From Chloroflexota bacterium (GTDB lineage Bacteria > Chloroflexota > UBA6077 > SHYK01), in the NCBI GenBank assembly GCA_009377635.1, contig WHTR01000004.1:1682-65681 (forward strand): DNA of 64,000 bases. The letters are read 5' to 3'. Each line of letters begins with the position of its first letter. Position 1 is the stretch's first letter. The notes under the pieces were generated by a model. That model worked only from the letters and a program-made list of their open reading frames with translations. It was not told the DNA's origin and ran no database searches. Below, piece by piece: positions 1 through 61,090 of the stretch. Both the position numbers and the translations under genes were made by a program.

Positions 1-1514
1 AGGTAGTACTCCTGGCCGAGGTGCGTGATCTGCTCCTCGCCCATGAGCCAGCGGAGCGTGTTCTTCAGCTTCGTCTGCTGGATGAACAGGTCGTGCTCTG
101 GGTATACGGACGGCGCGTGCTGGGGGCTTTTGAAATAGAAGGAGAGCCATTCCTGGATGCCGTGCATCCCTGCCCGTTGGGCCAGATCCAGCAACAGCGT
201 CAGATCGAGGACCAAGGGCGCCGCCAGGATCGAGTCCCGGCAGAGAAAATCGATCTTGATCTGCATCGGATAGCCAAGCCATCCGAAGATATCGACGTTG
301 TCCCAACCCTCCTTGCTGTCGCCCCGCGGCGGGTAGTAGTTGATCCGGACCTTGTGGTAGAGGTCGCCGTAGAGCGCCGGATACAGCTCCGGCTGTAGGA
401 TGTGCTCCAGCACGCCGAGCTTTGACTCCTCCTTGGTCCGGAAGCTCTCCGGGTCATCCAGAACCTCGCCGTCACGGTTGCCCAGGATGTTGGTCGAGTA
501 CCAGCCGCGAACGCCGAGCATACGCGCCTTCAGCATCGGAGAGATCACCGTTTTCATGAGGGTCTGGCCCGTCTTGAAGTCCTTCCCACAGATCGGCACG
601 ATGCGCTCATTCGCCAGCTCAACCATGGCACGAATGTCAACCGTCAGGTTAGGGGCGCCGTTCGCGAAGGGCATGCCCTCCATCAGCGCCGCATACGCAT
701 AGACCATCGATGGCGCAATGCTCTGGTCGTTGGTGTCGAGGCCGTCCTCGAACGCCTCGAGGTCCAAGTGGACCGGTCCTTCCTCGAGGAAGGCCTCCGT
801 GGACGCACACCAGACCATTACCAGGCGGTCGCATCGGTGCCCGGCCTTGAAGTCCCGGATGTCCTGCCGGATCGCCTCGGCGAGCTCGCGCTTCGTCTTC
901 CCACGCTTGACATTCGGTCCGTCCAGTCTCTTGACGTACTCGTTGCCGAACACGGACGGCATCGGTTCGATGCTCTTGAGGAAGTCCGCGATCGGCTCGA
1001 GGTGCTCGTGGCGATCGAGCACGCCGGCCTTCAGCGCGGCCTCGTAGGCGTTGTCCGGGAAGAGGTCCCAGGCGCCGAACACGAGCTGATCGAGGCCGGC
1101 CAGGGGAACGAAATCCCGGATCAGGGGCGTGCGGTTCTCCGTACGCTTCCCCAGGCGGATCGTGCCCATCTGCGTCACGGAGCCGATGGGTTGTCCGTTG
1201 CCACGCCGGACATGCTCGACGCCGGCAATGAAGGTGGACGCCACGGCACCGAGGCCGACGAGAAGCACGCCGATGCGGCCGTCAGCGGGTGCAATGGCGG
1301 GGGGCGGCGACTCAACGAAGTCCTTCGGTTCCAAGACCAATCCTTTCTCCCGGGCGAGCGACATGAGTCGCTGATGCCAGTGTGCCGGAATACGGCCGGT
1401 GCGGGCCCAGTGCTCGACCGTGCTCTGGCGGCGGCTCAGGTGGCGAGCAAGCATGCTCTGGCCACCGAAGCGGTGAATGATGCGGCGGGCCGGCGAAGGG
1501 TAGCCACCGTTCAT
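1..1514 (-). CDS. ino1: myo-inositol-1-phosphate synthase (archaeal/Thermotoga-type), 3' end off-window, with N-terminal Cro/YdaS-like HTH extension
   Basis: This edge-truncated ORF is missing from the supplied track because it has no stop in the window. My reverse-strand translation reads GRIGVLLVGLGAVASTFIAG...VMVWCASTEAF...GKDFKTGQT...NILGNRDG...GWLGYPMQIKIDFLCRDSILAAPLVLDL, typical of MIPS. An in-frame ATG at 1514 adds about 50 aa (RIIHRFGGQSMLARHLSRRQSTVEHWARTGRIPAHWHQRLMSLAREKGL). The alternative start is ATG 1364. Confidence 0.85.
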   Translation of the reverse strand, partial: MNGGYPSPARRIIHRFGGQSMLARHLSRRQSTVEHWARTGRIPAHWHQRLMSLAREKGLVLEPKDFVESPPPAIAPADGRIGVLLVGLGAVASTFIAGVEHVRRGNGQPIGSVTQMGTIRLGKRTENRTPLIRDFVPLAGLDQLVFGAWDLFPDNAYEAALKAGVLDRHEHLEPIADFLKSIEPMPSVFGNEYVKRLDGPNVKRGKTKRELAEAIRQDIRDFKAGHRCDRLVMVWCASTEAFLEEGPVHLDLEAFEDGLDTNDQSIAPSMVYAYAALMEGMPFANGAPNLTVDIRAMVELANERIVPICGKDFKTGQTLMKTVISPMLKARMLGVRGWYSTNILGNRDGEVLDDPESFRTKEESKLGVLEHILQPELYPALYGDLYHKVRINYYPPRGDSKEGWDNVDIFGWLGYPMQIKIDFLCRDSILAAPLVLDLTLLLDLAQRAGMHGIQEWLSFYFKSPQHAPSVYPEHDLFIQQTKLKNTLRWLMGEEQITHLGQEYY

Positions 1515-3376: not shown

Positions 3377-3841
3377 CTACTTGAACTCGTAGGACACGCT
3401 GTCTGGTTCGTTGTAGTGGAAGTCGGAGCCGGATTGTTCCACGTTGCTCGCGAGGTCAACGAGCACGGCGTGAGCGCTGATGCCCTGGAACGCGTGCGCC
3501 ACGAGCGGCGGCACCTGCAGGAACGTGACGTCCCCGCCCTGCGCGGTAAGCTCGATCTCTTCGACCTGTCCTCTCGTCGGTGACCCATCGCGCATGTCGT
3601 AGAGGACGACGCGCGCGGAGCCCGAGATCGTGGCCATCGTGTCGGTGCCCTGCTTGTGGTAGTGGAACGGGCGGACGGCGGCGCGGTTGAGCGTCATCAA
3701 AAGCAGGTCGCCGTAGCCCACGAACCAGTCTTTGTCGGACGAGACGTACCCGGCTCCGCCCATCATTCCCCCCTCGTCGGCGAAGCCCCGCGCCACGCGC
3801 GTCCGCACGCCATCGATCTTTGCGGCTGCTGTCTGTGCCAA
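3377..3841 (-). CDS. cupin-fold protein (WxcM/FdtA sugar-ketoisomerase-like)
   Basis: 154 aa with TTG start and a GGAGG 7 nt upstream. The motif RPFHYHKQGTDTMATISGSARVVLYD resembles the FdtA/WxcM cupin core. Confidence 0.65.
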   Translation of the reverse strand: MAQTAAAKIDGVRTRVARGFADEGGMMGGAGYVSSDKDWFVGYGDLLLMTLNRAAVRPFHYHKQGTDTMATISGSARVVLYDMRDGSPTRGQVEEIELTAQGGDVTFLQVPPLVAHAFQGISAHAVLVDLASNVEQSGSDFHYNEPDSVSYEFK

Positions 3842-5213
3842 TTGTGCGCCTCCTCTGGAGTGTTGAGCTTAGGACTTTGGTCGCGCCGGCTCGAAAAATC
3901 GGGCAGCATTCTCTCCGAGGCTGCCGAGCCCAGCCCTTCCCGCTGACGAGCTCGGCCCAGTGGCGATAGAAGTTGCGCTGGCAGGTGTCGCTGAAGAAGG
4001 GGCCGACGCGACCGGGCAGGTCCGCGTTCCGCTCCTCCTCGTGGCCGAGGCCCATCTGGTAGTTGAGGGGTACCCGACGGCAGGCGACGCCCCTGCTGTT
4101 CTGAGTGGCCTGCATCCAGTTGTCGGCGTCATCCTGCTCCCACGTGCCCCCCGGCGAAAAGCGCCGGAGACAGTGGAGTCGGATCGCCTCGCGCACTTCT
4201 GGGGGAGCGGACCGCTCTACCAAACACCACGCCCACACCTCCATCTTGTCCGGCCCCTTCGGGTGCCACACCCGGAGCGTCCGCGTGCCAAACAGAAACG
4301 AGAGCGTCGGGAACACCGTGCCGTGAACAGGGGCCATCATGCGCGCCCGCACGCGGCCGAGTCGTCGCTCGGTCTCGGGCAGGATCGACTCATAGTAGTC
4401 GGCGATTGTTGGGATGCTGCCGACGCGACCATCGCCGTCGGGCCACCAGCCGCTTCCCAGTCCATGCCCGCCAGGCAGCGCGATTTGGTAGCCCCTTTGG
4501 GCTCCGGTGTAGCCTGGCCCACTACTCTGGCCGCCTCCTCCGAAGCCCACCTGGAACGCCGAGGCATGCGTCAGCCCCCCGTGATACATGTCGCCGACGA
4601 AATTCTCTGCCGCGAGCTTCCAGTTCGCGCTCACCACCCACTTCTGAACCGGGCCGATCACCTCGGTGCCGCCGTCCTGCCGATCGAGCATGATATCGAG
4701 GTACCAGGCCATGTCGCCAAGATAGTCGATGAGCGACGGCGCATCAGGGTCGAGGTTGCCGAGAATCAGCCCCTTATAAGTCTCGACGCGTGGCACCGCA
4801 ATGAGCCCCCACGCGTCCCTGTCGAGCTCCTCGAACCAGAACTCCTTATAGGACGGAACGCCCATCAGCTTGCCCTCGTTGGAGTAGGACCAGCCGTGGT
4901 ACGTGCAGGTGAAGTTCGTCGTGCGGCCGGCATCGAGGCGGCATACGCGGTTGCCGCGGTGGCGACAGGTATTGAGGAACGCGCGAGCCGCGCCATCCGC
5001 GCCGCGCACCACGATCCCCGAATCCTCGCCCATGTAGGTGGTGAAAAAGTCGCCGGGCTGCTCGAGCTGACTCTCGTGCGCCAGGTACAGCCACGCATGG
5101 GCGAAGACCCGCTCCTGCTCCAGCTCATAGAGCATCGGATCGGAGAACACACGTCGATCCATGAGTCCGTTCTCGACATCGACCAGGCTTTGGACGTCCG
5201 TCGCTACCATCAT
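3456..5213 (-). CDS. aromatic ring-hydroxylating (Rieske) oxygenase alpha subunit; 3' end probably frameshifted
   Basis: Rieske motif CRHRGNRVC...CTYHGWSY, followed by a catalytic domain up to ...QRNFYRHWAELVSGK. After about aa 428 the frame becomes Arg-rich nonsense and overlaps the cupin gene by ~385 nt. The +1 frame gives ...GLGSLGENAARFFEPARPKS and stops at 3869, which is the natural spacing before the cupin RBS. Confidence 0.8.
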   Translation of the reverse strand: MMVATDVQSLVDVENGLMDRRVFSDPMLYELEQERVFAHAWLYLAHESQLEQPGDFFTTYMGEDSGIVVRGADGAARAFLNTCRHRGNRVCRLDAGRTTNFTCTYHGWSYSNEGKLMGVPSYKEFWFEELDRDAWGLIAVPRVETYKGLILGNLDPDAPSLIDYLGDMAWYLDIMLDRQDGGTEVIGPVQKWVVSANWKLAAENFVGDMYHGGLTHASAFQVGFGGGGQSSGPGYTGAQRGYQIALPGGHGLGSGWWPDGDGRVGSIPTIADYYESILPETERRLGRVRARMMAPVHGTVFPTLSFLFGTRTLRVWHPKGPDKMEVWAWCLVERSAPPEVREAIRLHCLRRFSPGGTWEQDDADNWMQATQNSRGVACRRVPLNYQMGLGHEEERNADLPGRVGPFFSDTCQRNFYRHWAELVSGKGWARQPRRECCPIFRAGATKVLSSTLQRRRTIGTDSSRKDRWRADARGAGLRRRGGNDGRSRVRLVRQRLVRGLRRPAFDDAQPRRRPPVPLPQAGHRHDGHDLGLRARRPLRHARWVTDERTGRRDRAYRAGRGRHVPAGAAARGARVPGHQRSRRAR

Positions 5214-42515: not shown

Positions 42516-43078
42516 GATCCGACTCCCGTGTAGGTTCACCCGATCGGAGGGCTGGGCATGAGATCCCGAAGTCCTGCGCACCCGACTGGCGGCGATGGGC
42601 AAGCTCTCGGCCCGTAGTACAACTCGGCTGAGGCCGTCGGCGGCCTTACACGTGCCGCCTTTCGACCACTTCGCCCTGGCGTGGGCTTCGCGCTTTGATG
42701 TTTCCAGCGCGTATCCCTACCCAACGTGACTACCCTGCGATGCCCCGGGCGGGCCAGTTGGTACACCGGAGGTTGCTCCACCCCGGTCCGCTCGCACGTG
42801 AAGTGGCTCCCCGACGCTTATCGCAGCCAGGCACGTCCTTCATCGGCTCCACGCGTCAAGGCATCCAGCGTGTGCCTTTTGTAGATTGCAGACATCAATC
42901 CCGGCAGCATGGAGATGTGCGGGTCTTCGGTTGTTCAGCTGCCGGCCCCTGCGGATCACGGGGGCCCGGGCCACCGGTCGGCCCTGATTAACCCTAACAC
43001 CATCCGAAAAAGCGCGTCCAGCTCCGGCCGTTGCAATCCGGCAGGATGTCGGTAAACGCGCGGCGAATAACACCATCT

Positions 43079-47776: not shown

Positions 47777-48288
47777 TTAGCGTGCTGGGTACTCCACGTC
47801 GACCTCGGCGTCGTACTCACCCCGCGGCGCTTGGACCTCCACGACCAGGAGTGTGCGCTCCCGCCCCCGCAGGTCGATCTCCCGATCCTCCTGGACGGTG
47901 GCGCCGGTGGCACGGTCCCGCAGCCGAACCAGCAGAGCGACCTGGCCGTGGCCGAGCCAGCTGTTCTGGATCGTCGCCTCGACGCGGTAAGCGCCCGTAT
48001 TCTCGCTCGGAGCGATGAGCTGCACATCAGCCACAGACGGACGCGGACCGGTGCCGACAGCGGCCAACGCAAGCTGGATGGCTGCCACCGGGCCGTTCAC
48101 GGCTAGCGGCCCGGGACCCAGGGCGGGAACACGAAGAGCTGCGCCTGCCAGACCAGAAGCCCGATACCAAGCGACGCTGTAGCAAACAGGCCAACGTAGA
48201 AGACCGCGAGGCGGCGGACCCGCTGCGCGAACTCCCGCGGACTGTGGGTCCCGGGCTCGCGAACAACGGTCGCCGGTATTCCCTCCAT
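47777..48288 (-). CDS. hypothetical membrane-anchored protein with Ig/CARDB-like C-terminal domain; apparent frameshift
   Basis: ATG 48288 opens a short ORF with a TM helix (LAVFYVGLFATASLGIGLLVW) that stops at 48103. A second frame continues as PLAVNGPVAAIQ...VADVQLIAPSENTGAYRVEATIQN...EVQAPRGEYDAEVDVEY, which looks like a beta-sandwich. The frames switch in the C/G homopolymer stretch at 48103-48130. Confidence 0.4.
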
Positions 48289-48390
48289 GCCGGGGAATAT
48301 ATCCCCGCGGCCGGAAGCGCGCCATTCGCAGGAGATCGTCGCGGGCGATATTGTGCCTGTTGACGCGAGACGATTGACTAGCCGACACGC

Positions 48391-50883
48391 TCAGTGAGCG
48401 TCAACCAATGCCCGCTCGGCTGCCTCGGTCGCGTCACGGTACGTTGTCCCTTTGGGAAGCGTGAGCGGTTCGCCAACGATCAGACGGACAGTTCCAGGCT
48501 TGTTCGGCAAGTAGGGGAACGACTGATCGCGAGGGAAGAGCCGGTGATAATGCTCGAGCTTGAATGGAACGATCGGCACACGCATCTCAACGGCCATGAG
48601 CCCAGTGCCGTTCAGAAACGGACGTAGGGCGCCGTCGAGTTCGGGTTCCCCCTCCGGGCTGATGATGACGGCGTACCCGTCGTCGAGCCATCGCCCGAGC
48701 TCCTCGAGTCCGGCGAGGGCTGTTCCGCCGCTCTTCGCGAACGAAAACGCCTGAGCGGCGAGTGCTGCTAGCAGACCCTGCCACCGGTCCCGGCCTTTCC
48801 AGATACGTGGGTCGACGGCGACAGCGACGCGGGACCGGACGTGGGCCGGCAGGGCCCGCAGCAGGACGAGGGGCGCGTACGGCCCTTGATAATTGAAGAT
48901 CACCAGGGACGGCACCGGGAGCGACGCCGCCCGGTCGGGGTGCACGACGTCCAGGCGCATCCATCGGTCCTGCAGCCGAAACGCGATCCAGAGCAGCGCG
49001 GACCCGATCATCCTGGCCCACCACGTGCGAGGCCAGCGCGGCGGAGCCTTGATCTCCCTGCTCGTCGATCCGGCGGCGACGAGGGCGCGGAGCTCTGCGA
49101 TGGTCGTTTGAGGACCCACCGCCAGCTCGTCGACGACACGCCCCATCTCCTCTTCGATCGCGGCGAGGAGCTCTATCCGGCCGATTGAGTCGAGCCCGAG
49201 ATCACCTTCGAGCTCGGCGCCGTCCCGAACATCGTCGGACGGCCGCTCGGCCGCGCGCGCAATCACAGCGATCAGCGGGTCGCCGGGGGGACCGGGCCGT
49301 CCCGGCCTTTCGCCGACCACTGCCGCGCGGTCTCTCTCGACTGCTTCGCGCACGGATACGCGGTCGACTTTGAGTGTCGCCGTCCGGGGAAAATCGGCTT
49401 CCTGCCAGATCGTGTATCCGCGAATCTGCTGGTGTGCTGCCAGCCGCCGATTCGACTCCCGGATGATCTCGTCTGCCCGCTCGGGTGCCGTCGTGAGCAG
49501 TGCGGCATAAACTGCCTCCCCGTCATTCCGCTCGACCCCGACGACGCAGCTCTCTCTCACCAGCGGATGAAGGTTGAGGGTTTGTTCGACGTCTTCTGGG
49601 TAGACGTTACGCCCGTCCGGCAGCACGATCTTGAATGCGGCCCGCCCGGAGATGCGCAGGAAGCCGTCAGCGTCGAGCGAGCCAATATCGCCGGTCTGCA
49701 GCCACCCGTCGACAAACGAACGGCTCGTGAGCTCCTCGTTGCCGAAGTAGCCCGGGCTCACCGTCGGGCCGCGAATGAGGATCTCTCCATCCCCGGAGAT
49801 CCTCACGTCGACACCCGGAATGGGTTGTCCGACGGTCCCCAGCCGCTGGGCGCGCCAGCTGTTGATCGTGCTCGCAGCGCTCGTCTCGGTAAGGCCGTAT
49901 CCCTCGAGGATGTGCACGCCCATGCGCTGCCACGCGGCCGCGACCTTGAGATCCAGCGGCGCCCCACCCGACCCGAAGAACTCGAGGTGGCCGCCCAGCG
50001 CGCGATGCACGCGTCCGAAAAGCACGCGGCGGAGCGGGAACGGAATCCGCTCAGCGACCGCGTGTGCCGAAGTCCAGAGTGCCTCGTTCTCCTCACGCGC
50101 ACGCCGCTCGATCCCGGTCAGCAGCATGCGGAGTAGCTGGGGGACCAGGATGAGGCAGGTCGTGCCCTCCTCTCGCAGTGCTCGCGAGATAGTCACGGCG
50201 TTGACGCTCGGCACATGGGTCATCCGTACCCCGAAGGTGTACGCGAGCAGGAGATCGATGATCTGCTCCAGGGCATGGCTGAGCGGCAGGACAGAGAGGG
50301 CACGGTATGAGCGCTTCAGTGGGAATGCCTGTCGCATCGCCGCGATCTCTGCCAGGAAGTTGCCGTGCGTCAACATGACACCTTTGGGCACCCCGGTTGT
50401 GCCCGACGTGAAAGCAATTTCGCAAAGGCTCTGCGAGGGTATGTCGGGGACTGAGGCCAGCGGCCGCATGTCGGCGACGAGATCGAGCAGATCCTCGAGG
50501 TCGAATGTCTCGGCCACGGGCGGGCCAAAGCGGCCCGCGAGGTGTCGCGACTTGAACGCCATGCGTGGCTCGGCCGCCGCCACGAAGCGGTCGAGGATCT
50601 CCTGACCGGTCCGGACGTCAATCGGCACGACGACGACGCCGGCCGTCCACGCGCCAAAGTAGAGCATGGCGTACTCCGGCATGTTCGGCGACCAGACCAC
50701 GAGACGCTCGCCTGCCGTGATGCCGCGGGCGTTCAACCAGGCCGCGACCCGCCGAGCTCCGTCGCCTGCCGCCCGGAAGGTGTAGCGTTCGAGCCGAAGC
50801 CCGCGCCGGACCTGAAACGCTACGTCGTCCGCGAACTGCTCTGACGCGGCGCCGACAAGCTCACCTAGATTGCGATACGTCAA
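48391..50883 (-). CDS. tri-domain protein: acyl-AMP/CoA ligase + carrier-protein domain + LPLAT (PlsC-like) acyltransferase domain
   Basis: AMP-binding motifs (FTSGTTGVPKGVMLTHGNF, GYGLTE, TGDIG), the phosphopantetheine site LGLDSIGRIEL, and a C-terminal acyltransferase-like region with IISPEGEP. The HX4D box reads NYQGPYA. Confidence 0.8.
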   Translation of the reverse strand: MTYRNLGELVGAASEQFADDVAFQVRRGLRLERYTFRAAGDGARRVAAWLNARGITAGERLVVWSPNMPEYAMLYFGAWTAGVVVVPIDVRTGQEILDRFVAAAEPRMAFKSRHLAGRFGPPVAETFDLEDLLDLVADMRPLASVPDIPSQSLCEIAFTSGTTGVPKGVMLTHGNFLAEIAAMRQAFPLKRSYRALSVLPLSHALEQIIDLLLAYTFGVRMTHVPSVNAVTISRALREEGTTCLILVPQLLRMLLTGIERRAREENEALWTSAHAVAERIPFPLRRVLFGRVHRALGGHLEFFGSGGAPLDLKVAAAWQRMGVHILEGYGLTETSAASTINSWRAQRLGTVGQPIPGVDVRISGDGEILIRGPTVSPGYFGNEELTSRSFVDGWLQTGDIGSLDADGFLRISGRAAFKIVLPDGRNVYPEDVEQTLNLHPLVRESCVVGVERNDGEAVYAALLTTAPERADEIIRESNRRLAAHQQIRGYTIWQEADFPRTATLKVDRVSVREAVERDRAAVVGERPGRPGPPGDPLIAVIARAAERPSDDVRDGAELEGDLGLDSIGRIELLAAIEEEMGRVVDELAVGPQTTIAELRALVAAGSTSREIKAPPRWPRTWWARMIGSALLWIAFRLQDRWMRLDVVHPDRAASLPVPSLVIFNYQGPYAPLVLLRALPAHVRSRVAVAVDPRIWKGRDRWQGLLAALAAQAFSFAKSGGTALAGLEELGRWLDDGYAVIISPEGEPELDGALRPFLNGTGLMAVEMRVPIVPFKLEHYHRLFPRDQSFPYLPNKPGTVRLIVGEPLTLPKGTTYRDATEAAERALVDAH

Positions 50884-51635: not shown

Positions 51636-52595
51636 CTACCGGTGGAACCGGGGCAGGATCTCGCGCTCGCAGAATCGGAAGAAGCCCTCCTGGTCGGGGC
51701 CGATCTGGTGGATCCCGACGTGATCGAACCCGGCCTTGGCGAACTCGTCGATCGCCGCGGCATAGGGCTCCGGGTCGGGCCCGCAGACGACGGCCTCTGT
51801 GACGTCCGCCTCACGCACCAACGCGGCGGCCTCCTCCACCAGGGAGGGCAGACGCAGCTCTGAGAAGAGCCCCCCGGTGAGCCCCGCAAGCGGCCAGTAC
51901 TCGAACGCACGTCGCCGTGCCTCGGCTTCGTCCTGCGCCCAGCAGACATGAATCTGACCGTAGCATGGCTTGCCAGCTCCTCCGGCCGCCTCGAACCACC
52001 GGACCATCTCCGCGCTCGGCGCGTTGCTCATGGCGCCGTCGCCGAGCCGACCCGCCGTCTCTGCGCTGCGCCGTCCACTAGCGGCCACAACGACCGGCGG
52101 CAGCCGCTCGGGCAGATCGTAGATACGAGCCTCCTGGACCGTGAAGTGCTCGCCGTAGTGGCTGCGTTTGCCACCCTGCCAGAGCATGCGGATCACATCG
52201 ATTGCTTCCTCGAGCATCTCACGGCGCACCGAGGGCTCCGGCCATTGCTCGCCGAGGATGTGCTCGTTGAGGCTCTCGCCGGCGCCGAGGCCGAGGAAGA
52301 AGCGGTCCGGCAGGAGAGCCGCGGCTGTGGCACCCGCCTGGGCGATGATCGCCGGGTGGATGCGCATCGTCGGGCATGTCACTGCCGTGCCCAAGCGCAG
52401 CCGGCTCGTCGCCTGCGCGATACCGCCGAGCACGGCCCAGACAAACGGCGCGTGCCCCTGGCGGTCGATCCACGGATGAAAGTGGTCGGAGATTAGGGCA
52501 AACGGAAATCCGACCTCCTCCGCCCGCCGCGCGTTCCGGACGAGGTCGGCTGGCGCGTGCTCCTCACTTGAGAGCCAGTAGCCGAGCTCGACCAT
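51636..52595 (-). CDS. luciferase-like (LLM-class) F420-dependent oxidoreductase, G6PD-related subgroup
   Basis: GAGGAGG RBS. MVELGYWLSSEEH...ISDHFHPW...GLGAGESLNEH fits the TIM-barrel LLM family. Confidence 0.75.
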   Translation of the reverse strand: MVELGYWLSSEEHAPADLVRNARRAEEVGFPFALISDHFHPWIDRQGHAPFVWAVLGGIAQATSRLRLGTAVTCPTMRIHPAIIAQAGATAAALLPDRFFLGLGAGESLNEHILGEQWPEPSVRREMLEEAIDVIRMLWQGGKRSHYGEHFTVQEARIYDLPERLPPVVVAASGRRSAETAGRLGDGAMSNAPSAEMVRWFEAAGGAGKPCYGQIHVCWAQDEAEARRRAFEYWPLAGLTGGLFSELRLPSLVEEAAALVREADVTEAVVCGPDPEPYAAAIDEFAKAGFDHVGIHQIGPDQEGFFRFCEREILPRFHR

Positions 52596-52721
52596 CAAAC
52601 GCCTCCTCTCGCCACTCGGCCGCATGTACCCGTCCTTCCCTCGTCCGCCTCAAGGGGAAGAGGCCGGCGCCGCTCTGCGGCGCCGGGTGAGGATGCACCT
52701 CATTAGCCCGCAAACCACCTG

Positions 52722-53429
52722 TCATGACCTCTTCCCCTCCGTTGCCTTCTCCGTCGAACGCTGGAGGACGTCGTCGCGGCGGAACAGGCCGACGAGCTCA
52801 CCATCGCTCGTCGTCACGAGGATATTCGACACGCCACGCTCCGCCAGGTACTCGGCTGTCTCCTTCGCGGGCTCATTTGGTCGGTAGGCGATCGGGCCCG
52901 GCTCCATAACGAGTTGAGCGCTGAGCTCCGGGTCGGCCTCCAGTCCGTCCTTGCGCAGCCGTCCGAGCACGACGTTGCGTTCGTTGACGACGACGCAGGT
53001 GTCCGCGCCGAGTCTTCGGACACGCTCCTGCACGTCGCCGATCGGGTCGTCGGGCATACACGTCGGGACGTCACGGCGCGCTATATCACCGATGCGGGGC
53101 ACCGACGCGAGCGTGCCTTCAGTCGGCAGCCCGGAGGCAGACCAATCCGCCTTGCCCGCCACATATCGATAGACCTGTGTGAATCCGAGACTCTCGAGCC
53201 GCCACGCGGCCCGTGCGCTCAGGTCTCACTGGTAGTCCTGGCAATATACGACCACGGGAACGTCACGTCGAAACTCAGCTCCAGATTCGCCGTCCATCCG
53301 CGTGAGCGGCATGTTGATGGCTCCCGGCAGGTGCTCGTCATCGTACTCCTGCCGCGGCAGCACCTCAATGAGCTGTGCCCCGGATCGGGCGAGCTCGCGC
53401 AGATCGTTGCGATCGATTGCAGTAGGCAT
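52722..53429 (-). CDS. rhodanese domain + CBS-pair protein with an in-frame TGA (codon 68) in the rhodanese active-site loop
   Basis: GGGAGG RBS before ATG 53429. The two track ORFs (53226-53750 and 52722-53162) are in the same frame and separated only by the TGA at 53226-53228: ...HLPGAINMPL...VPVVVYCQDYQ[TGA]DLSARAAWRLESLGFTQVYRYVAGKADWSASGLPTEG, followed by a CBS pair. Confidence 0.6.
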
Positions 53430-53586
53430 GCGTCCCGCCTCCCTCACTCCCCGGACTCCACCACCGGCACGGCGCCAGGCAATGATCTCCTGCTCACTCC
53501 CGAGGATGTTCCTACGCACGTTGTAGGCTCTTATCATAGACGGCGAGGCAACGTGCTCCGTTGTGCTAAGCCGTGCGAGCCCGGCA

Positions 53587-54033
53587 CTAGATTGCTTCCG
53601 GGAGCTGTCCTTCCGCCATGCGCTTGAATCGCCGTAGGTCCACGTCCAGCATCTGATCCACGTTCTGCGCGAGGTGCGCGACTGCCTCGCCCACGAAGCC
53701 CCCGGGCGCATCGAACCACTGCAGAATGACATGGACCAGCGTCTGACCACCCACCTCCGAGAACGTTACGTTGCCCGAGGTTCCGATCTGACTTCGACCG
53801 TCGATGGAACGCCAGCCGATGGAGCGGCTCGGCTCGTCCTCGCACGTCTCAGCGTCGAACTCGACCTGTGTTCCCATCGGTCCTCGGATCTTCCAGTGCG
53901 ACTCGCGACCATTCAGCTTTCGAACGTCGAGTACGTGCTCCATGAAGTTCGGGAAGTGCTCGAAATCGGACCACAACTCGTACGCCTGATTCGGAGAAAC
54001 AGCCACGCGCACTGATCGTTCAACGCGCTGCAT
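53587..54033 (-). CDS. SRPBCC (polyketide cyclase/dehydrase-like) family protein
   Basis: VERSVRVAVSPNQAYELWSDFEHFPNFMEHV...W.I.GP.G and following sequence is the typical SRPBCC pattern. Confidence 0.75.
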   Translation of the reverse strand: MQRVERSVRVAVSPNQAYELWSDFEHFPNFMEHVLDVRKLNGRESHWKIRGPMGTQVEFDAETCEDEPSRSIGWRSIDGRSQIGTSGNVTFSEVGGQTLVHVILQWFDAPGGFVGEAVAHLAQNVDQMLDVDLRRFKRMAEGQLPEAI

Positions 54034-54288
54034 CGCCCCGCTCCATGTTCTCGAATTGCCCGCTTACAACTATGCGGCGCAGCGGTTGAGGGGCTCGTGG
54101 CTGGGCGTGAACGGAGCGTTACGGCTGCCTCCCGCGCACGGTGCCCAATCGCGAATCGTGAACCGACCGATGCCGCGGCTCAGCTCTCCTCGGCTCACGA
54201 CGATGGTTGACGCTGCTGAGACGCTTCTCAACCGGGGCGGACACCTGGCGCTGAGAGACTTTCGTAGCCTGCGGTGGAGGAGCTGACG

Positions 54289-54783
54289 ATGCGGATGGTC
54301 TGGCGGAGAATCTCACGTCGACGCGCAGTTGCCGTGCCATCACTTCTAGCAGCTGGCGTTATCGGCGCGGGACTCGCATATCTCCTGGATCCCGATCATG
54401 GACGCAGGCGGCGGGCCATCGTACGCGACCGGCTGACCGCCGCGGCGCGCCGTGGCGCTCGCCAGTCGGGGCGGTGGGGTCGATATACGGCATCGACCGT
54501 TTCCGGGTGGAGCCTGAAAGCGGCCCGGCTCGGTCGCGTCGAGACCGAGCCGGTAAACGACCTGACCCTGTCGCACCGCGTGGAGAGCGAGCTGTTTCGG
54601 GATTCAAGGGTTCCCAAGGGACAGATCAACGTCAACGCCGAGCAAGGCGTCATCGTGTTGCGCGGAGCGCTTGATCGGCCAGAGCAGATTCGGGGAGTCG
54701 AGGAGCGCGTGCGCCGCGTTCTCGGCGTCGTTGACGTCGACAACCAGCTTCATCTGATCAACACGCCAGCCCCGAACGGCTGA
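54289..54783 (+). CDS. membrane-anchored BON domain protein
   Basis: GGAGGAG RBS 6 nt before ATG 54289. TM helix (AVAVPSLLAAGVIGAGLAYLL), then C-terminal BON (LSHRVESELFRDSRVPKGQINVNAEQGVIVLRGALDRPEQIRGVEERVRRVLGVVDVDNQLHL). Confidence 0.8.
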   Translation: MRMVWRRISRRRAVAVPSLLAAGVIGAGLAYLLDPDHGRRRRAIVRDRLTAAARRGARQSGRWGRYTASTVSGWSLKAARLGRVETEPVNDLTLSHRVESELFRDSRVPKGQINVNAEQGVIVLRGALDRPEQIRGVEERVRRVLGVVDVDNQLHLINTPAPNG

Positions 54784-54878
54784 GACACGCTTCTGGTTCC
54801 GATGCAGCGTTCACGCAGACGCCCGACGCTCGGGCCAGGTGACGTTTGGGACAGTCCGACTCAATCATGTGTGGCGTA

Positions 54879-56945
54879 TCAGGCGGCGGGCACGGCCTGC
54901 TCAGCCGAGGCCGCAGCGGCGGACGTCGCCAACGGGAGCTTGACGATGACCGTCGTGCCGTCGCCCTGCTGGCTGTCGATGTGGAACGTGCCCCCGTGCT
55001 GCTGGACGATCTGTCGCGACCCGGAGATCCCCAGTCCGTAGCCGCCGGTCTGTCCAACGACGTTGCCTCCCCGGGAGTATCGGTCGAAGATCGTGGGAAG
55101 ATCGCTCGCCGGAATTCCGACTCCCTCGTCTCGCACGGTCAGCACCGCCCACTGCGTGCTGCTGTCTTCTTGACAGAATACATTGACGGTGACGCAGCCA
55201 CCGTTCGGGCTGTATTTGACCGCATTGGCGAGCACGTTGCGCACCACCCGGTCAAGACGGAGCTGATCCCACTGGCCAATGATGCACACCGATTCAGCCG
55301 CCACGCGTATCTCGTGTCGATCGGTGGTGCATTGTGTGTCCGCGGCGACCTGTCGGGCCAGCGTCACGAGGTCAGTCGGCTGCGGCCGCAGGTCCAGCGT
55401 CCTTCCCACCTCAAGGGCAGCGACATCCAGGAGCTCGTCAAGCTGCGTCGCCATGGCGTGGGCCCGCTCGTGGATGCGGCGCATGTGGACGGCGAGCTGG
55501 TCGGACGATGGATTCGCCTCGCGCTGCAGTTTCAGCTCGAGGACCTGCGTCAAGGCACTCATGCCCGCCAGCGGGTTCTTCAGATCGTGTGTGACGCTCG
55601 CCAGGACCTCATTGCGCAGGCGCAGGGCCGTCTGTGCCTTGCTCAAGAGCCGGGCGTTGTCGATGGCCAGCGCGCAGCGACGGGCCACCTCTTCGGCCAG
55701 TGCCAGATCTCTCGCCGCGTAGCAGCGGCCCGGGTTCCCCCTTGCGAAGGCCATGGCGCCGAACGTCTCCCCGCGCGCCGACAGCGGCACGATCATGGCG
55801 GAGACGCTGCCGAGCCGTTGTAGGAGCCGTGCGTAGTCCGGAAGCACTGGGAATTGTCCAACCTGTTCCGGGTCATCCGTTGAGAAGAGCTGCGACTGCC
55901 CCGTGCGGATCACGTGCACGATGCCACAGGAGGCTTGGGACTCGACGGAAAAGGTTCCCACGCGGCCCTCCACGGCGACCTCATTGCTCGGCTCGACATC
56001 GGCCGCAGCAACGGGCGCTACGGTCCCATCGTCGTGGCACAGCGCAAGCACGCATCGATCGCCTAACGCGGGGATCGCGACGTGGGCCACCTGCTGCAGG
56101 GTGACCTCCTGGTCCAGCGAGGAGTTCAACGTTGCGCCCACGGCCGCCAGGAGCTGCTGGCTGTGTTCCATCCACTTGCGTTCGGTCATGTCGCGGGCAA
56201 CCGCGGAGGCGCCGATGAGCCGCCCATCCGCAGCGCGCAGTGGCGAGACCGTCAGCCACACGTCGATTCGCCGCCCGTCTTTGGCCACCCGTACCGTCTC
56301 GTAGGGTTCCACCCGATGACCGCGTCGAATACGTGCCATGATGGAAGGAAGCTCGTCCGGGCATTCGGGTGGGATCAAGAGGGAGATCGGCCGTCCCACG
56401 GCTTCGTTGGCCGTGTAGCCGTAGAGCCGCTCGGCGCCCCGATTCCAACTCGTGATCACGCCGTCCAGGGTCTTGCCGATAATCGCGTCCTGCGAGGATT
56501 CGACGATGGCCGCGAGATACGCGCGAGCCGCCTCCGCGGATTGGCGTTCGGTGATGTCCACCAAGATGTTCACGGCACCGATGAGATTGCCCTGCGTGTC
56601 GCGGAGGGGGTTAGCGTGGGCGAGGACGGTCGCACGCGTGCCGTCCCTGCGCTCGATGACGATCTCCTGACCGTTGAACTCTCGGTTCTCCCGGAGCGCC
56701 CGCGCCATCCAGCAGCGGTCGTGGCGAATCGGGGTCCCGTCCGTCGCAAAGAGGCGGAAGGAACCACAGAAACGATCCGCAGGATGATTCACCTTCGGCG
56801 ACCGCCCCCACAACTCCACCGCGTGCTGATTGAAATACGTGATCAAGCCGTCGGAATCGCAGGTGTAGGCACCTGCCGGCAGCTTTTCCAGCAGGAGACG
56901 AAGATCCGCTTCGCTGCGGTGGCCGACCAGACCTTCTCCTTGCAT
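54879..56945 (-). CDS. PAS-PAS-GAF sensor histidine kinase (cytoplasmic)
   Basis: AAGGAGAG RBS before ATG 56945. Two PAS/PAC units, a GAF domain, H-box LASVTHDLKNPLAGM, and HATPase N/G boxes (VLANAVKYSP, DEGVGIP, GGYGLGIS). Confidence 0.9.
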   Translation of the reverse strand: MQGEGLVGHRSEADLRLLLEKLPAGAYTCDSDGLITYFNQHAVELWGRSPKVNHPADRFCGSFRLFATDGTPIRHDRCWMARALRENREFNGQEIVIERRDGTRATVLAHANPLRDTQGNLIGAVNILVDITERQSAEAARAYLAAIVESSQDAIIGKTLDGVITSWNRGAERLYGYTANEAVGRPISLLIPPECPDELPSIMARIRRGHRVEPYETVRVAKDGRRIDVWLTVSPLRAADGRLIGASAVARDMTERKWMEHSQQLLAAVGATLNSSLDQEVTLQQVAHVAIPALGDRCVLALCHDDGTVAPVAAADVEPSNEVAVEGRVGTFSVESQASCGIVHVIRTGQSQLFSTDDPEQVGQFPVLPDYARLLQRLGSVSAMIVPLSARGETFGAMAFARGNPGRCYAARDLALAEEVARRCALAIDNARLLSKAQTALRLRNEVLASVTHDLKNPLAGMSALTQVLELKLQREANPSSDQLAVHMRRIHERAHAMATQLDELLDVAALEVGRTLDLRPQPTDLVTLARQVAADTQCTTDRHEIRVAAESVCIIGQWDQLRLDRVVRNVLANAVKYSPNGGCVTVNVFCQEDSSTQWAVLTVRDEGVGIPASDLPTIFDRYSRGGNVVGQTGGYGLGISGSRQIVQQHGGTFHIDSQQGDGTTVIVKLPLATSAAAASAEQAVPAA

Positions 56946-57240
56946 CGTTGCACTCTCCTTCTCATGGAGGAGCCGAAGACTAGGTGGTGCCAGACTCCTC
57001 AACGTGAAGCCCCGAGATGGTCTGCATATAAGTGTAGGGAGGTACCGTCTCCATTTCAACTAGAAGCTGCACGCACGTGCTCACGTGGCGGCAACGACCG
57101 AATCGTTGACACTCGCTGCCATATGTCTGTTACATCGGCCACTAAGACCGAGAAAGCTCCAGTTCGGACAAGGCAGAGGAGCGTTGGGTGCGTCCGCCGA
57201 CCGGTAAGCCCGCGGAATGCGCTGCCTCGTTCGCCACTCC

Positions 57241-58899
57241 CTACCCGAGCTCCCACAGGTGGGCGTTCGGGATAGGCGACCTCACTGAGCGGGGCTCGAC
57301 GTTCTTCAGGCGCTGATGCTTCATCTGCGGAACGACGTTGTAGAAGAGGTGGATGACCACGACATTCTCCGTGAGATGCCGGACTACATCCCCGAGGACG
57401 GCGTCTCGCTCTGACCCGGGCAACATCTGGAAGTAGCGATCGATGAAAGTGTCCAGCTCGGGATTCATGTACCGAGCCCGGTTCGAGCCACGGAAGTTGT
57501 TCTCGGGAAGGGGCGTCCGCGAGCTGAGGAATCGCGTGTCGAGCTCGGTTCGCAGCGCCGCCATCTGGAAGCCAGGTCGAGAGGCCATGACCGAGTCGTC
57601 CGCGGTCGACGGGATGATATTCGGCGCAGCCGCGACCCCTACCCTTCGCCAGTAGTCCACGATCGCCAGCGTGGTGCGCTCGTAGGTGTCGGAGCCGCCC
57701 GCAGTCCACGCTTGAACCTGGAGCTCCCGGTTCGCGGCGTCTCGGAATAGACCGTCCGAACCCCTCGTGAAGCCTAGGTCAGCGATGAGCTGCGCGGCCC
57801 GCTGCGGATCGTACGGGTACTCGACGATGCGGTCCTTGATGGACCCGAAGCCGGGGCCGGTGGGCGCGGGCAGGGAAGACGCTACTGCTCCTACGCCTGC
57901 CTGGACCGATTGAAGGATCTCGTCGCGGTCGATCGCGTGGGCGAGCGCGCGCCTGAGGCGCACGTCGAGGAGGATCGACGGGTCCGGCTCGTAGAACTGG
58001 GGATAGGCCACAGCCTGGGTCTGGAAGTTGGGTGAGTAGATGACCTCGCCGTCGGCCCAGCTGTCCTTCACACGGAGAGCCTGATCGATCGACAATCCGC
58101 TCCCGACCGTGAGATCGACCTCGTCGGCAAGGAGGTTCGCCATGAGCGTGTTCACCTCCGGGATGTACCGGAGCTCGATCTCATCGATCTTCGGACGCCC
58201 GAGGACGTAGCCGTCGAATGCCTTGAGGAGCATGTGCGTGCCGGGGACGAATTCGGTGACGATGAAGGGGCCATTGCCGACGAACTCAGTCGTCCAATAG
58301 CGGAGATCTATGAAACTAACGGGGTCGTCGCTGAACGGCTCCTTGAGCAGGTGCCGGGGGAGCGGGGGTGCGAAGATGTTGCTGAAGAGCCAGTTCGCCT
58401 GCGGATAGAGGCTATTCCAGGTGATCACGATCGTGCGATCGTCGATCGGATCCACGCTCTCGATTAGCTCGAAAGCGGCGGAGCCGAAATTGCTGTGCGG
58501 ATACATCTTCCCAACACTCACGCCGAACACCGCGTCCACGGCCGCGAACGGCGTTCCATCGTGCCAGCGCGCTCCCTCGCGGATTGCGACGGTCGTCTCC
58601 ATTCGGCCGTCGGGGAAGATCTTCCAGAGGCCGTTCTCCCGTGTTGGGAGCGCCTCGGCGAGGTGGGCTGCCGGCTCGCCCGACGCGTCGAAGCGGACGA
58701 GGGCGGACAGGACCAGCTCGTCGGTGTCCTCCGAACCGGTGCCGCGGACGTCCGCTCCCGGACCCGGGAGCCCGACGGTGATCCGCTTGGACTCGGTGGG
58801 CCCTTCCGATCCGGCCGTGCCGACGGAACCTCCATCCTGGGGTCCGCACGGGGCAACGAACATCACGAAGACGAGTGAGCCGATGAGTGTTCGCTTCAT
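57241..58899 (-). CDS. family-5 ABC transporter substrate-binding lipoprotein (peptide/nickel type), orphan
   Basis: Signal peptide and lipobox (LVFVMFVAPCG). Full-length SBP_bac_5-like body. No permease or ATPase genes are adjacent. Confidence 0.85.
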   Translation of the reverse strand: MKRTLIGSLVFVMFVAPCGPQDGGSVGTAGSEGPTESKRITVGLPGPGADVRGTGSEDTDELVLSALVRFDASGEPAAHLAEALPTRENGLWKIFPDGRMETTVAIREGARWHDGTPFAAVDAVFGVSVGKMYPHSNFGSAAFELIESVDPIDDRTIVITWNSLYPQANWLFSNIFAPPLPRHLLKEPFSDDPVSFIDLRYWTTEFVGNGPFIVTEFVPGTHMLLKAFDGYVLGRPKIDEIELRYIPEVNTLMANLLADEVDLTVGSGLSIDQALRVKDSWADGEVIYSPNFQTQAVAYPQFYEPDPSILLDVRLRRALAHAIDRDEILQSVQAGVGAVASSLPAPTGPGFGSIKDRIVEYPYDPQRAAQLIADLGFTRGSDGLFRDAANRELQVQAWTAGGSDTYERTTLAIVDYWRRVGVAAAPNIIPSTADDSVMASRPGFQMAALRTELDTRFLSSRTPLPENNFRGSNRARYMNPELDTFIDRYFQMLPGSERDAVLGDVVRHLTENVVVIHLFYNVVPQMKHQRLKNVEPRSVRSPIPNAHLWELG

Positions 58900-60459: not shown

Positions 60460-60619
60460 GAACGCAGACTACAAAGCGGTGTTATCCTCAACCGCCTGGA
60501 GCGGGAACGTGCGCTTCAACACGCCGGTTCTGTTGGTCGGAGCCAACCGAACGTTCAATGCGTCGCGCTGGAATGGCGCTGACCGCTGATCGAGCCGGTC
60601 GGGCGCCCCTGCCGAGACA

Positions 60620-61090
60620 CTACAATGCCCAAAGAAGGAGAACGCTCACCGCCGTCAGGCCGCCCGCCGTTGCAATCGACTCCAGGTGGACTTTGCGGGC
60701 CTGGCGTCGAACCTGCGCAAGTACGGCCTGATCGTCGATCCGTTCCTCACCCCGGTCGAGATTGCGCGCGCCGCGCGCCGCAAGGCTCACTCAGGTCTTT
60801 TCAAGCGCCTGAAAGACGCCTGTGGCTCCACCCCAATAGGGGAGGAACAGGACGAGCCCCCACAGATGGCCAGCGCTGAAGGCGGCGAAGGCGGCCAGCA
60901 GCCCGATGCCGACGGCCGCCATGACTATCCCGCTGAAGAGACGCCGGCGCCGTTGCGCCGGCCCGATATTCGGAATGCAGACATCCATCAGGCCGGGTTC
61001 GTCCACCCCCTGCTCTCCACTGGAGCCAGCGGACGAGCGGTGTCGCAGATCGCTGGTAGACTGTTCACTCATTCGATTATGCCAAATCAT
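60620..61090 (-). CDS. YgaP/DUF2892-like small membrane protein with an in-frame TGA
   Basis: ...DVCIPNIGPAQRRRRLFSGIVMAAVGIGLL...LFLPYWGGATGVFQALEKT[TGA 60791-60793]VSLAARGARNLDRGEERIDD...LTAVSVLLLWAL, with a TAG stop at 60620. The ORF stays open in frame for 56 codons after the TGA. The start is uncertain (61090, 61072 or 60988). Confidence 0.55.

Follow-up and report, generated by a model that had tools for sequence, protein, structure and literature searches.

A probable selenocysteine codon in the gene of a small membrane protein from a Chloroflexota bacterium

The mercuric transport protein MerT is a small three-helix membrane protein with thiols at its cytoplasmic face between helices 2 and 3 and a further Cys site at its N-terminus. 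MerT-type proteins (PF02411, C/SxxU) are among the few integral-membrane families listed in a 2026 inventory of prokaryotic selenoproteins, which counts 119 families and subfamilies, almost all of them tied to Pfam, NCBIfam or TIGRFAM models (PMC13188914). Within the Chloroflexi, both selenoprotein users and tRNA-Sec have been reported (PMC1794560, PMC5389517). The bacterial selenocysteine insertion sequence (SECIS) used for comparison here is that of Escherichia coli fdhF, in which G23 and U24 of the loop contact SelB and U17 forms a bulge (PMC8659212). Here we analyze a 64,000-nucleotide (nt) stretch of DNA from a Chloroflexota bacterium (contig WHTR01000004.1), hereafter the window, in which a gene for a small membrane protein is interrupted by an in-frame TGA at 60793-60791. 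We consider it very likely that this TGA is a selenocysteine (Sec) codon within a full-length gene that extends from 61090 (or 60988) to 60620.

The minus-strand open reading frame (ORF) starts at ATG 61090, runs for 99 codons to a terminal GATGVFQALEKT and then meets the TGA. Past this codon the frame remains open for 56 codons (VSLAARGARNLDRGEERIDDQAVLAQVRRQARKVHLESIATAGGLTAVSVLLLWAL, beginning VSLAARGARNLDRGEERIDD and ending LLLWAL) up to the TAG at 60622-60620. A preliminary description of the window, made from the sequence alone, had reported this layout, and its coordinates and frame were confirmed. It had also proposed Sec at the TGA because the codon falls on a key Cys, is followed by a SECIS-compatible hairpin and has a counterpart in a second gene of the window, and this core proposal is upheld by the analyses below. 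TGA is an ordinary stop elsewhere in the window; many well-supported ORFs with high G+C content at third codon positions (GC3) terminate in it, which excludes a reassigned genetic code. The start codon is uncertain, as ATG 61090, 61072 and 60988 are all possible. Homologs start 3-20 residues upstream of a conserved N-terminal Cys, which would favor 60988.

A word-indexed search with the read-through protein identified one close relative, a 120-amino-acid (aa) 'hypothetical protein', P0001, which has Cys at the TGA column. The two proteins align over their full length with 53% identity across the alignment, VLAQVRRQARKVH is identical in both, and the C-terminal half of P0001 aligns to the 56-codon extension of the window gene. 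An exhaustive HMMER search with P0001 among 1.84 billion cluster representatives returned 876 family matches at E <= 1e-3, nearly all of about 120 aa, which puts the family at 876 or more clusters at 50% identity. A profile search of 5.8 billion proteins retrieved 805 members; among the 120 of these that were listed, none has a Pfam domain and those with a name are almost all 'hypothetical protein'. Pfam and NCBIfam scans of the window protein and its homologs found no model for the family.

When the best 150 of the 876 matches were aligned, the TGA column was occupied by Cys in 140 of 145 representatives and ranked among the most conserved positions, alongside N9, R18, Q62 and T67. The residue directly after the column is Val in 123 of the 145. 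The family consensus reads C-[IV]-[PA]-N-I-G-P-x-E-R-R-x-R-L ... F-Q-A-R-E-K-T-C-V-x-L-A-A-R-G-x-R-N-x-D-x-G, in agreement with the motifs that the preliminary description had given for related proteins (C.PNIG..R..R..G and FQA..KTC.ALA.RG, with Cys at this position).

The TGA is not peculiar to the window. Six of the best 150 representatives (P0115, P0116, P0129, P0132, P0138 and P0143) stop one residue before the Cys column, all of them terminating in ...[EDG]-K-T. DNA was retrieved for four of the six, and each carries a TGA at this point, after which V-x-L-A-[AS]-R-G-x-R-[ND]-[ML]-D... continues in the same frame until a normal stop about 53 codons on. We then scanned GTDB species genomes and JGI metagenomes with a codon-neutral N-terminal pattern and with a second pattern demanding a Cys codon. 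These scans yielded TGA forms in metagenome-assembled genomes (MAGs) of Gemmatimonadales (L007, L010) and Longimicrobiales (L009), as well as on six metagenome contigs (L012, L014, L015, L016, L021, L027). MAG contigs with TGA forms are CAVVTU010000001.1, JBJKRT010000020.1 and CAWKGE010000016.1. Thirteen Cys forms came from these scans too, including some from Vicinamibacterales and Pyrinomonadaceae MAGs; MAGs with Cys forms include DASRJR01, DASZEK01 and JBJMGR01.

Together with the window gene there are 13 distinct TGA forms (the window and 12 others), which share 40-60% mutual identity and come from different samples and assemblers. No TAA or TAG was seen at the Cys column in the family homologs examined. 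Twelve of the 13 TGA forms can be read to a normal stop, and the extension is open and conserved in all 12; the remaining one (L001) reaches the end of its contig once 20 conserved extension codons have been read. Since synonymous sites are near saturation among TGA-form pairs, only the closest pairs are informative for the ratio of nonsynonymous to synonymous differences (pN/pS); the two closest give values of 0.23 and 0.33 for the extension. A rough neighbor-joining tree groups the TGA forms into four or more clusters, with Cys forms interspersed. The preliminary description had left to be checked whether orthologs end at the TGA and whether the 56-codon extension is conserved: orthologs have either Cys or a TGA with a conserved extension, none terminates there, and the extension is conserved across TGA and Cys forms.

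A hairpin within the coding sequence lies just 3′ of the TGA; its sequence and its placement at 60762-60783 are as the preliminary description gave them. Folded alone, the 22-nt hairpin has an energy of -11.7 kcal/mol. Numbering from the U of UGA as 1, the codon-aligned TGA forms share a common design with a core stem of nt 18-21 paired with nt 27-30, extended as GCGCGC-GGN-GCGCGC or UCGCGC-GGUCU-GCGCGA. The core pairs are retained in 12-13 of the 13 forms, with a single compensatory change from G-C to A-U (L016). G22 and G23 are invariant (13/13), and nt 24 is U in 9 of the 13.

Over nt 10-39 after the codon, mean folding energy is -11.3 kcal/mol in the TGA forms versus -7.5 kcal/mol in the Cys forms (Mann-Whitney p = 3.5e-4) and the mean z score against synonymous-codon shuffles is -1.19 versus -0.03 (p = 0.002), in tests that treat related sequences as independent. 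As the shuffles preserve each protein sequence, the latter contrast is not explicable by the encoded peptide. The Gly codon in the loop is GGT in 9 of 13 TGA forms and in 1 of 11 Cys forms (Fisher p = 0.004), a preference that stands out because the genomes are G+C-rich. It is only by comparison that the hairpin becomes significant, as the TGA forms possess it and the Cys forms show it weakly, and this comparison supports the SECIS-compatible geometry that the preliminary description had ascribed to it. Like the fdhF SECIS, the hairpin begins about 11-15 nt after the UGA and has G22-G23-U24 in the same numbering in 9 of 13 forms (G22 and G23 in all); unlike it, the stem is a short, near-pure G-C helix of 4-7 base pairs (bp) with a tri- or pentaloop, and the bulged U17 is not conserved.

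The window contains a second gene with a Cys-aligned TGA, as the preliminary description had noted: a rhodanese and CBS gene with an 8-bp hairpin of its own. Full-length rhodanese homologs mostly have Cys at the TGA column (DYQ-C-DLS), with Trp or Asp in a few. In five closer relatives the called protein starts only at 'MSARAAW...', just past the column, which is the expected behavior of a gene caller on meeting an in-frame stop, and the best database match covers the CBS half alone ('MAG: CBS domain-containing protein [Chloroflexi bacterium]', NCBI). Logan contig L028 (run SRR10173838), an independent assembly, is 100% identical to window positions 52336-57335, including the rhodanese TGA. 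The gene scores under the cut-off of the NCBIfam selenoprotein rhodanese models (TsoB, 31 bits; LYCAU-type, 28 bits) and may represent a further Sec form of rhodanese. The membrane-protein gene and the rhodanese gene are 7.4 kb apart. The preliminary description had hinted at a functional tie between them; this finds no support, as the genes between them are unrelated and the linkage occurs in no relative. That two unrelated genes have Cys-aligned TGAs with correctly placed hairpins argues that the organism decodes Sec, and we infer this trait for the source genome.

We hypothesize that the UGA at 60793-60791 is recoded as Sec in the usual bacterial manner. The in-gene stem-loop just 3′ of the UGA would recruit SelB with Sec-tRNA(Sec), and translation would continue for 56 codons to the TAG at 60620, yielding an integral membrane selenoprotein of about 120-150 residues. 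This calls for no new mechanism, because the gene would work like every other bacterial selenoprotein gene.

Besides the assumption of independence in the tests above, several observations weigh against this proposal. Compared to dinucleotide-preserving shuffles, the window hairpin has z = +0.14 (22 nt) and +0.12 (39 nt); it lies in a CG-repeat stretch in which shuffled sequence folds equally well, and for this reason the window hairpin alone is no evidence and cannot carry the weight that the preliminary description placed on it as a strong hairpin. Its loop is a GGC variant (C24), or, in the register of the preliminary description, has a bulged G16. Covariation across the family is weak, with one compensatory pair, and slipped registers score similarly, because the stem hardly varies and CG repeats permit such slippage. 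The conserved peptide A-R-G-x-R forces part of the stem pairing, and a 6-bp hairpin occurs at the same place in two Cys forms (L023, L026). A search of window positions 60600-60900 against Rfam at E <= 10 gave no match. Neither the 64-kb window nor any of the fetched loci yielded selA, selB, selD or tRNA-Sec; tblastn with E. coli SelA, SelB and SelD sequences had no match in the window, where no tRNA gene was found either. Exact-product look-ups, made with the 99-aa, 93-aa and 56-aa products and two neighboring genes, returned no record of any of them, and so supplied no independent assembly or reads covering 60791-60793; the rhodanese region, in L028, was the sole part of the window recovered.

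This last result leaves some room for a pseudogene or an artifact, in which a mutation from TGC or TGT to TGA, or an assembly or sequencing error, left a dead or truncated 99-residue product. A single base change would suffice, no independent record of the codon came to light, and, with gene callers taking TGA as a stop, the look-ups gave no read-through call. Yet 12 other homologs, 40-60% identical and coming from unrelated samples and different assemblers, have a TGA in the same column, never replaced by TAA or TAG, and the extension is open and conserved in 11 of 11 other TGA forms readable to the end. This recurrence with a conserved extension across relatives largely excludes a pseudogene or sequencing error. 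Further against it stand the pN/pS values of 0.23-0.33 in the closest pairs, the position-specific hairpin that accompanies the TGA, and the reproduction of the contig's other TGA, in the rhodanese gene, in the independent Logan assembly. We regard a pseudogene or artifact as extremely improbable. Another reading is a split gene, with the UGA a true stop, the 56 codons translated separately from an adjacent GTG, and a two-helix and a one-helix protein assembling with each other. GTG, a possible start, is indeed the next codon in 9 of the 13 TGA forms, and gene callers annotate downstream ORFs (e.g., L002 458-622 and L004 5235-5366). However, the codon after the TGA is GTA in three and CTG in one of L012, L015, L016 and L027, none of which has a normal start there, and Val is equally conserved at this place in Cys forms (123/145), so the protein sequence explains the GTG. 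A split gene would also leave unexplained why the break always falls at the conserved Cys, why it is always TGA, and why a stem-loop with GG(U) at loop nt 22-24 goes with it. We consider it very unlikely.

That the UGA is recoded, with an amino acid other than Sec, deserves separate consideration. A selC*-type tRNA(Cys) that mimics tRNA-Sec occurs in several anaerobic phyla, and allo-tRNAs are known in Acidobacteria (PMC5389517). An opal suppressor of this selC* type could insert Cys, or near-cognate tRNA-Trp or tRNA-Cys could read through the codon. Sequence alone cannot separate Sec from Cys insertion, and some rhodanese homologs have Trp at the column of the second TGA. Against such recoding, repeated change from a Cys codon to UGA would lack a selective reason if Cys were inserted anyway, the hairpin geometry fits a SelB-binding SECIS, and TGA serves as a normal stop elsewhere in the window. 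Moreover, a Sec/Cys pair at a redox-type Cys is the classic signature by which computationally predicted selenoprotein families are defined (PMC13188914). We give recoding to another amino acid a very small probability, and Sec remains the assignment that we prefer.

Next, we compared the family with known selenoproteins. It is absent from the 119 inventoried families (PMC13188914), and none of their Pfam or NCBIfam models match it. Searches of NCBIfam release 20 at E <= 1 with the window protein and three homologs gave no match to a selenoprotein family, the models covered including MerT-like, YeeE/YedE, SO_0444, TsoA-Y and GOS_B/C; the sole match was a sub-threshold one of P0002 to SCO2097_fam. 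The GOS 'hypothetical protein GOS_A', which is absent from the inventory, was considered as an earlier description of the family and rejected, as the sequences are unrelated. In common with inventoried Sec/Cys families, the family has a UGA at a conserved Cys, coexisting Sec and Cys homologs, a stem with a small G-containing loop about 20 nt on, and a probable partner Cys. It differs in being integral to the membrane, in having neither a thioredoxin-like fold nor a UxxC or CxxU motif, and in its own motif, K-T-U-V-x-L-A.

MerT is the closest analogue in kind, with about 120 residues, three helices and a thiol or selenol at the cytoplasmic face. Unlike MerT, the proteins described here lack a CC pair in helix 1, their genes do not lie in a mer operon context, and PF02411 had no match among family members at E <= 1.

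The preliminary description had labeled the protein YgaP/DUF2892-like, which the searches do not bear out. The window protein scores 11.1 bits against PF11127 (YgaP-like_TM/DUF2892; E = 0.47), for which the gathering cut-off is 25.3 bits, and the match covers the N-terminal motif and first helix without the Cys-bearing part. PF11127 is the commonest weak Pfam match in the family (16 of 80 members, best E = 0.0032), with none reported above the cut-off. Alignment by hhalign of a 125-sequence family profile with the C-terminal 71 residues of E. coli YgaP, a weak target as a single sequence, gave a probability of 0.2%. Both groups have a small membrane domain with an N-[IV]-G-x-x-[ED]-R-x-x-R-x-x-x-G-like motif ahead of helix 1, and the position of the Cys just past helix 2 is analogous. 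The Cys motif differs, being KTC-V-x-LAARG (K-T-[C/U]-V-x-L-A) here and G-x-CP-x-Y in DUF2892, and the family studied here has, in the model described below, an extra cytoplasmic module of about 50 residues with a beta-hairpin, and a third helix. A remote kinship to DUF2892/YgaP is possible; membership is not supported.

To put these results together, we hold the chance to be about even that this is a previously unrecorded selenoprotein family, made up of widespread small three-helix membrane proteins, with exchange between Cys and Sec at the key interfacial position in several lineages (four or more clusters on the rough tree). The source MAGs of the TGA forms are assigned to Chloroflexota and Gemmatimonadota. 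If confirmed, it would join a very small number of integral-membrane selenoproteins; as few families in the inventory are integral to the membrane (PMC13188914), a new one would widen the range of places where selenium chemistry is used.

An AlphaFold2 model of P0001, built from a 125-sequence alignment, has a pLDDT of 97.2 and a pTM of 0.86, which is unusually confident for a small membrane protein. Helix positions in the window protein were transferred from this model with the offset given by the pairwise alignment. The model suggests that the extension folds as a short helix, a beta-hairpin and a long helix that ends as a third membrane segment (~60685-60626 in the window). A profile search of PDB sequences returned chance matches only, and a Foldseek search of the P0001 model against the PDB found no similar solved structure (best E = 2.4).

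By the positive-inside rule, we infer that the Arg-rich N-terminus (CIPNIGPxxRRRR) and the charged segment of residues 62-103 after helix 2 are cytoplasmic, which would place the N-terminal Cys beside the Cys/Sec residue at the inner membrane face. This N-terminal Cys is present in about 64% of representatives overall and in all TGA forms that were not selected for it (P0115, P0116, P0129, P0132, P0138, P0143). The Cys...Sec pair would probably act as a reversible selenenylsulfide or as a binding site for soft metals or chalcogens. In three other family members (P0085, P0118, P0078), an N-terminal Cys/His-rich domain of about 60 residues (Y-x-CPxCG ... HT-x-EH ... C-x-x-C) replaces the N-terminal Cys; it has weak zinc-ribbon matches and gives a hint of metal or thiol chemistry at the cytoplasmic face.

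No universal neighbor was found across the fetched loci. Efflux-pump genes adjoin the family gene in five loci (L006 2758-3948, L008 1106-3331, L011 3201-3866, L014 1521-3745 and L029 1-5991); they encode a resistance-nodulation-division (RND) or MacB/FtsX-type permease, an outer-membrane factor and a periplasmic adaptor, and in all but one of the five loci the family gene follows the pump genes immediately and in the same orientation. A link to heavy-metal efflux was considered and was not confirmed, as the pumps type as general multidrug RND or MacB-like and not as CusA or CzcA. In two unrelated lineages, a gene for a cyclic-nucleotide-binding protein is divergent from the family gene (L004 4225-4836, L005 1004-1633 and L030-L035, ~3434-4885). 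The encoded protein is of the Crp/Fnr type in one lineage and a 483-aa protein in the other; one lineage has a Sec form and the other a Cys form. These neighborhoods, pumps in five loci and cyclic-nucleotide-binding proteins in two lineages, are too patchy for us to assign a function. If the Sec assignment holds, the Cys...Sec pair could serve in redox chemistry or as a soft-metal or chalcogen relay, possibly with tripartite efflux pumps in some lineages.

The assignment bears on annotation as well. Pipelines split both the membrane-protein gene and the rhodanese/CBS gene at the TGA, and NCBI annotates only the CBS half of the latter. Once the Sec codon is recognized, the membrane protein regains its full length, both in this genome and in no fewer than a dozen relatives. 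For an uncharacterized family, the Sec/Cys pair also marks a functionally critical residue; this offers a precise target for mutation and motivates a search for membrane-associated redox, metal or chalcogen chemistry. Finally, the finding points to Chloroflexota and Gemmatimonadota MAGs of soil or sediment type, judged by their metagenome sources, as likely Sec users.

The features of both genes and of the P0001 model are collected below.

Table 1. Positions of features in the window (nucleotides) and in the AlphaFold2 model of the homolog P0001 (residues)
Feature	Position	Strand	Remarks
Whole gene, read through the TGA	60620..61090	-	156 residues from ATG 61090; stop TAG 60622-60620
In-frame TGA, proposed Sec codon	60791..60793	-	Residue 100 counting from ATG 61090
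N-terminal Cys codon, CIPNIGP motif	60977..60979	-	Candidate partner of the Sec residue
Two predicted membrane helices	60800..60961	-	Residues 44-70 (60961-60881) and 75-97 (60868-60800)
56-codon extension 3′ of the TGA	60623..60790	-	Conserved in TGA and Cys forms
SECIS-like hairpin within the coding sequence	60762..60783	-	UUGCG(G)CGCG-CGG-CGCGCGCAA, 7 nt 3′ of the TGA
Window stem in the family register	60778-60773 with 60769-60764	-	nt 16-21 with nt 25-30; loop G22 G23 C24 = 60772-60770
Rhodanese and CBS gene	52722..53429	-	In-frame TGA 53228-53226, VVVYCQDYQ-[TGA]-DLSARAAW (CQDYQ-U-DLS, C-x4-U)
Hairpin of the rhodanese gene	53213-53195	-	8 bp, loop GUG at nt 24-26
P0001 helix 1	residues 12-38		Model
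P0001 helix 2	residues 43-65		Model
P0001 Cys/Sec	residue 68		Model
P0001 short helix	residues 69-74		Model
P0001 beta-hairpin	residues 76-78 and 83-85		Model
P0001 long helix, its end the third membrane segment	residues 89-119		Model

In the window, the genes that neighbor the membrane-protein gene are unrelated to it and encode a MORN-repeat protein, a methyltransferase, an enolase-superfamily enzyme, an SBP_bac_5 binding protein and a bacterioferritin.

We made two further observations in the window. On the minus strand at 42677-42812, a 136-nt fragment matches positions 2666-2801 of bacterial 23S rRNA (75-80 bits, E ~1e-22). The fragment is flanked by two minus-strand ORFs and distant from any rRNA operon, and its sarcin-ricin loop consensus is degenerate (CACGUGCGAGCGGACC vs UAGUACGAGAGGACC); it could be a decayed piece of rRNA or a mimic. 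At 48103-50883, also on the minus strand, an 830-aa ORF resembling a fusion of acyl-AMP ligase, carrier and acyltransferase ends at TGA 48391-48393, past which the frame is open for 96 further codons (GC3 0.75) to a TAG at 48103. This stretch is probably a separate small membrane ORF.

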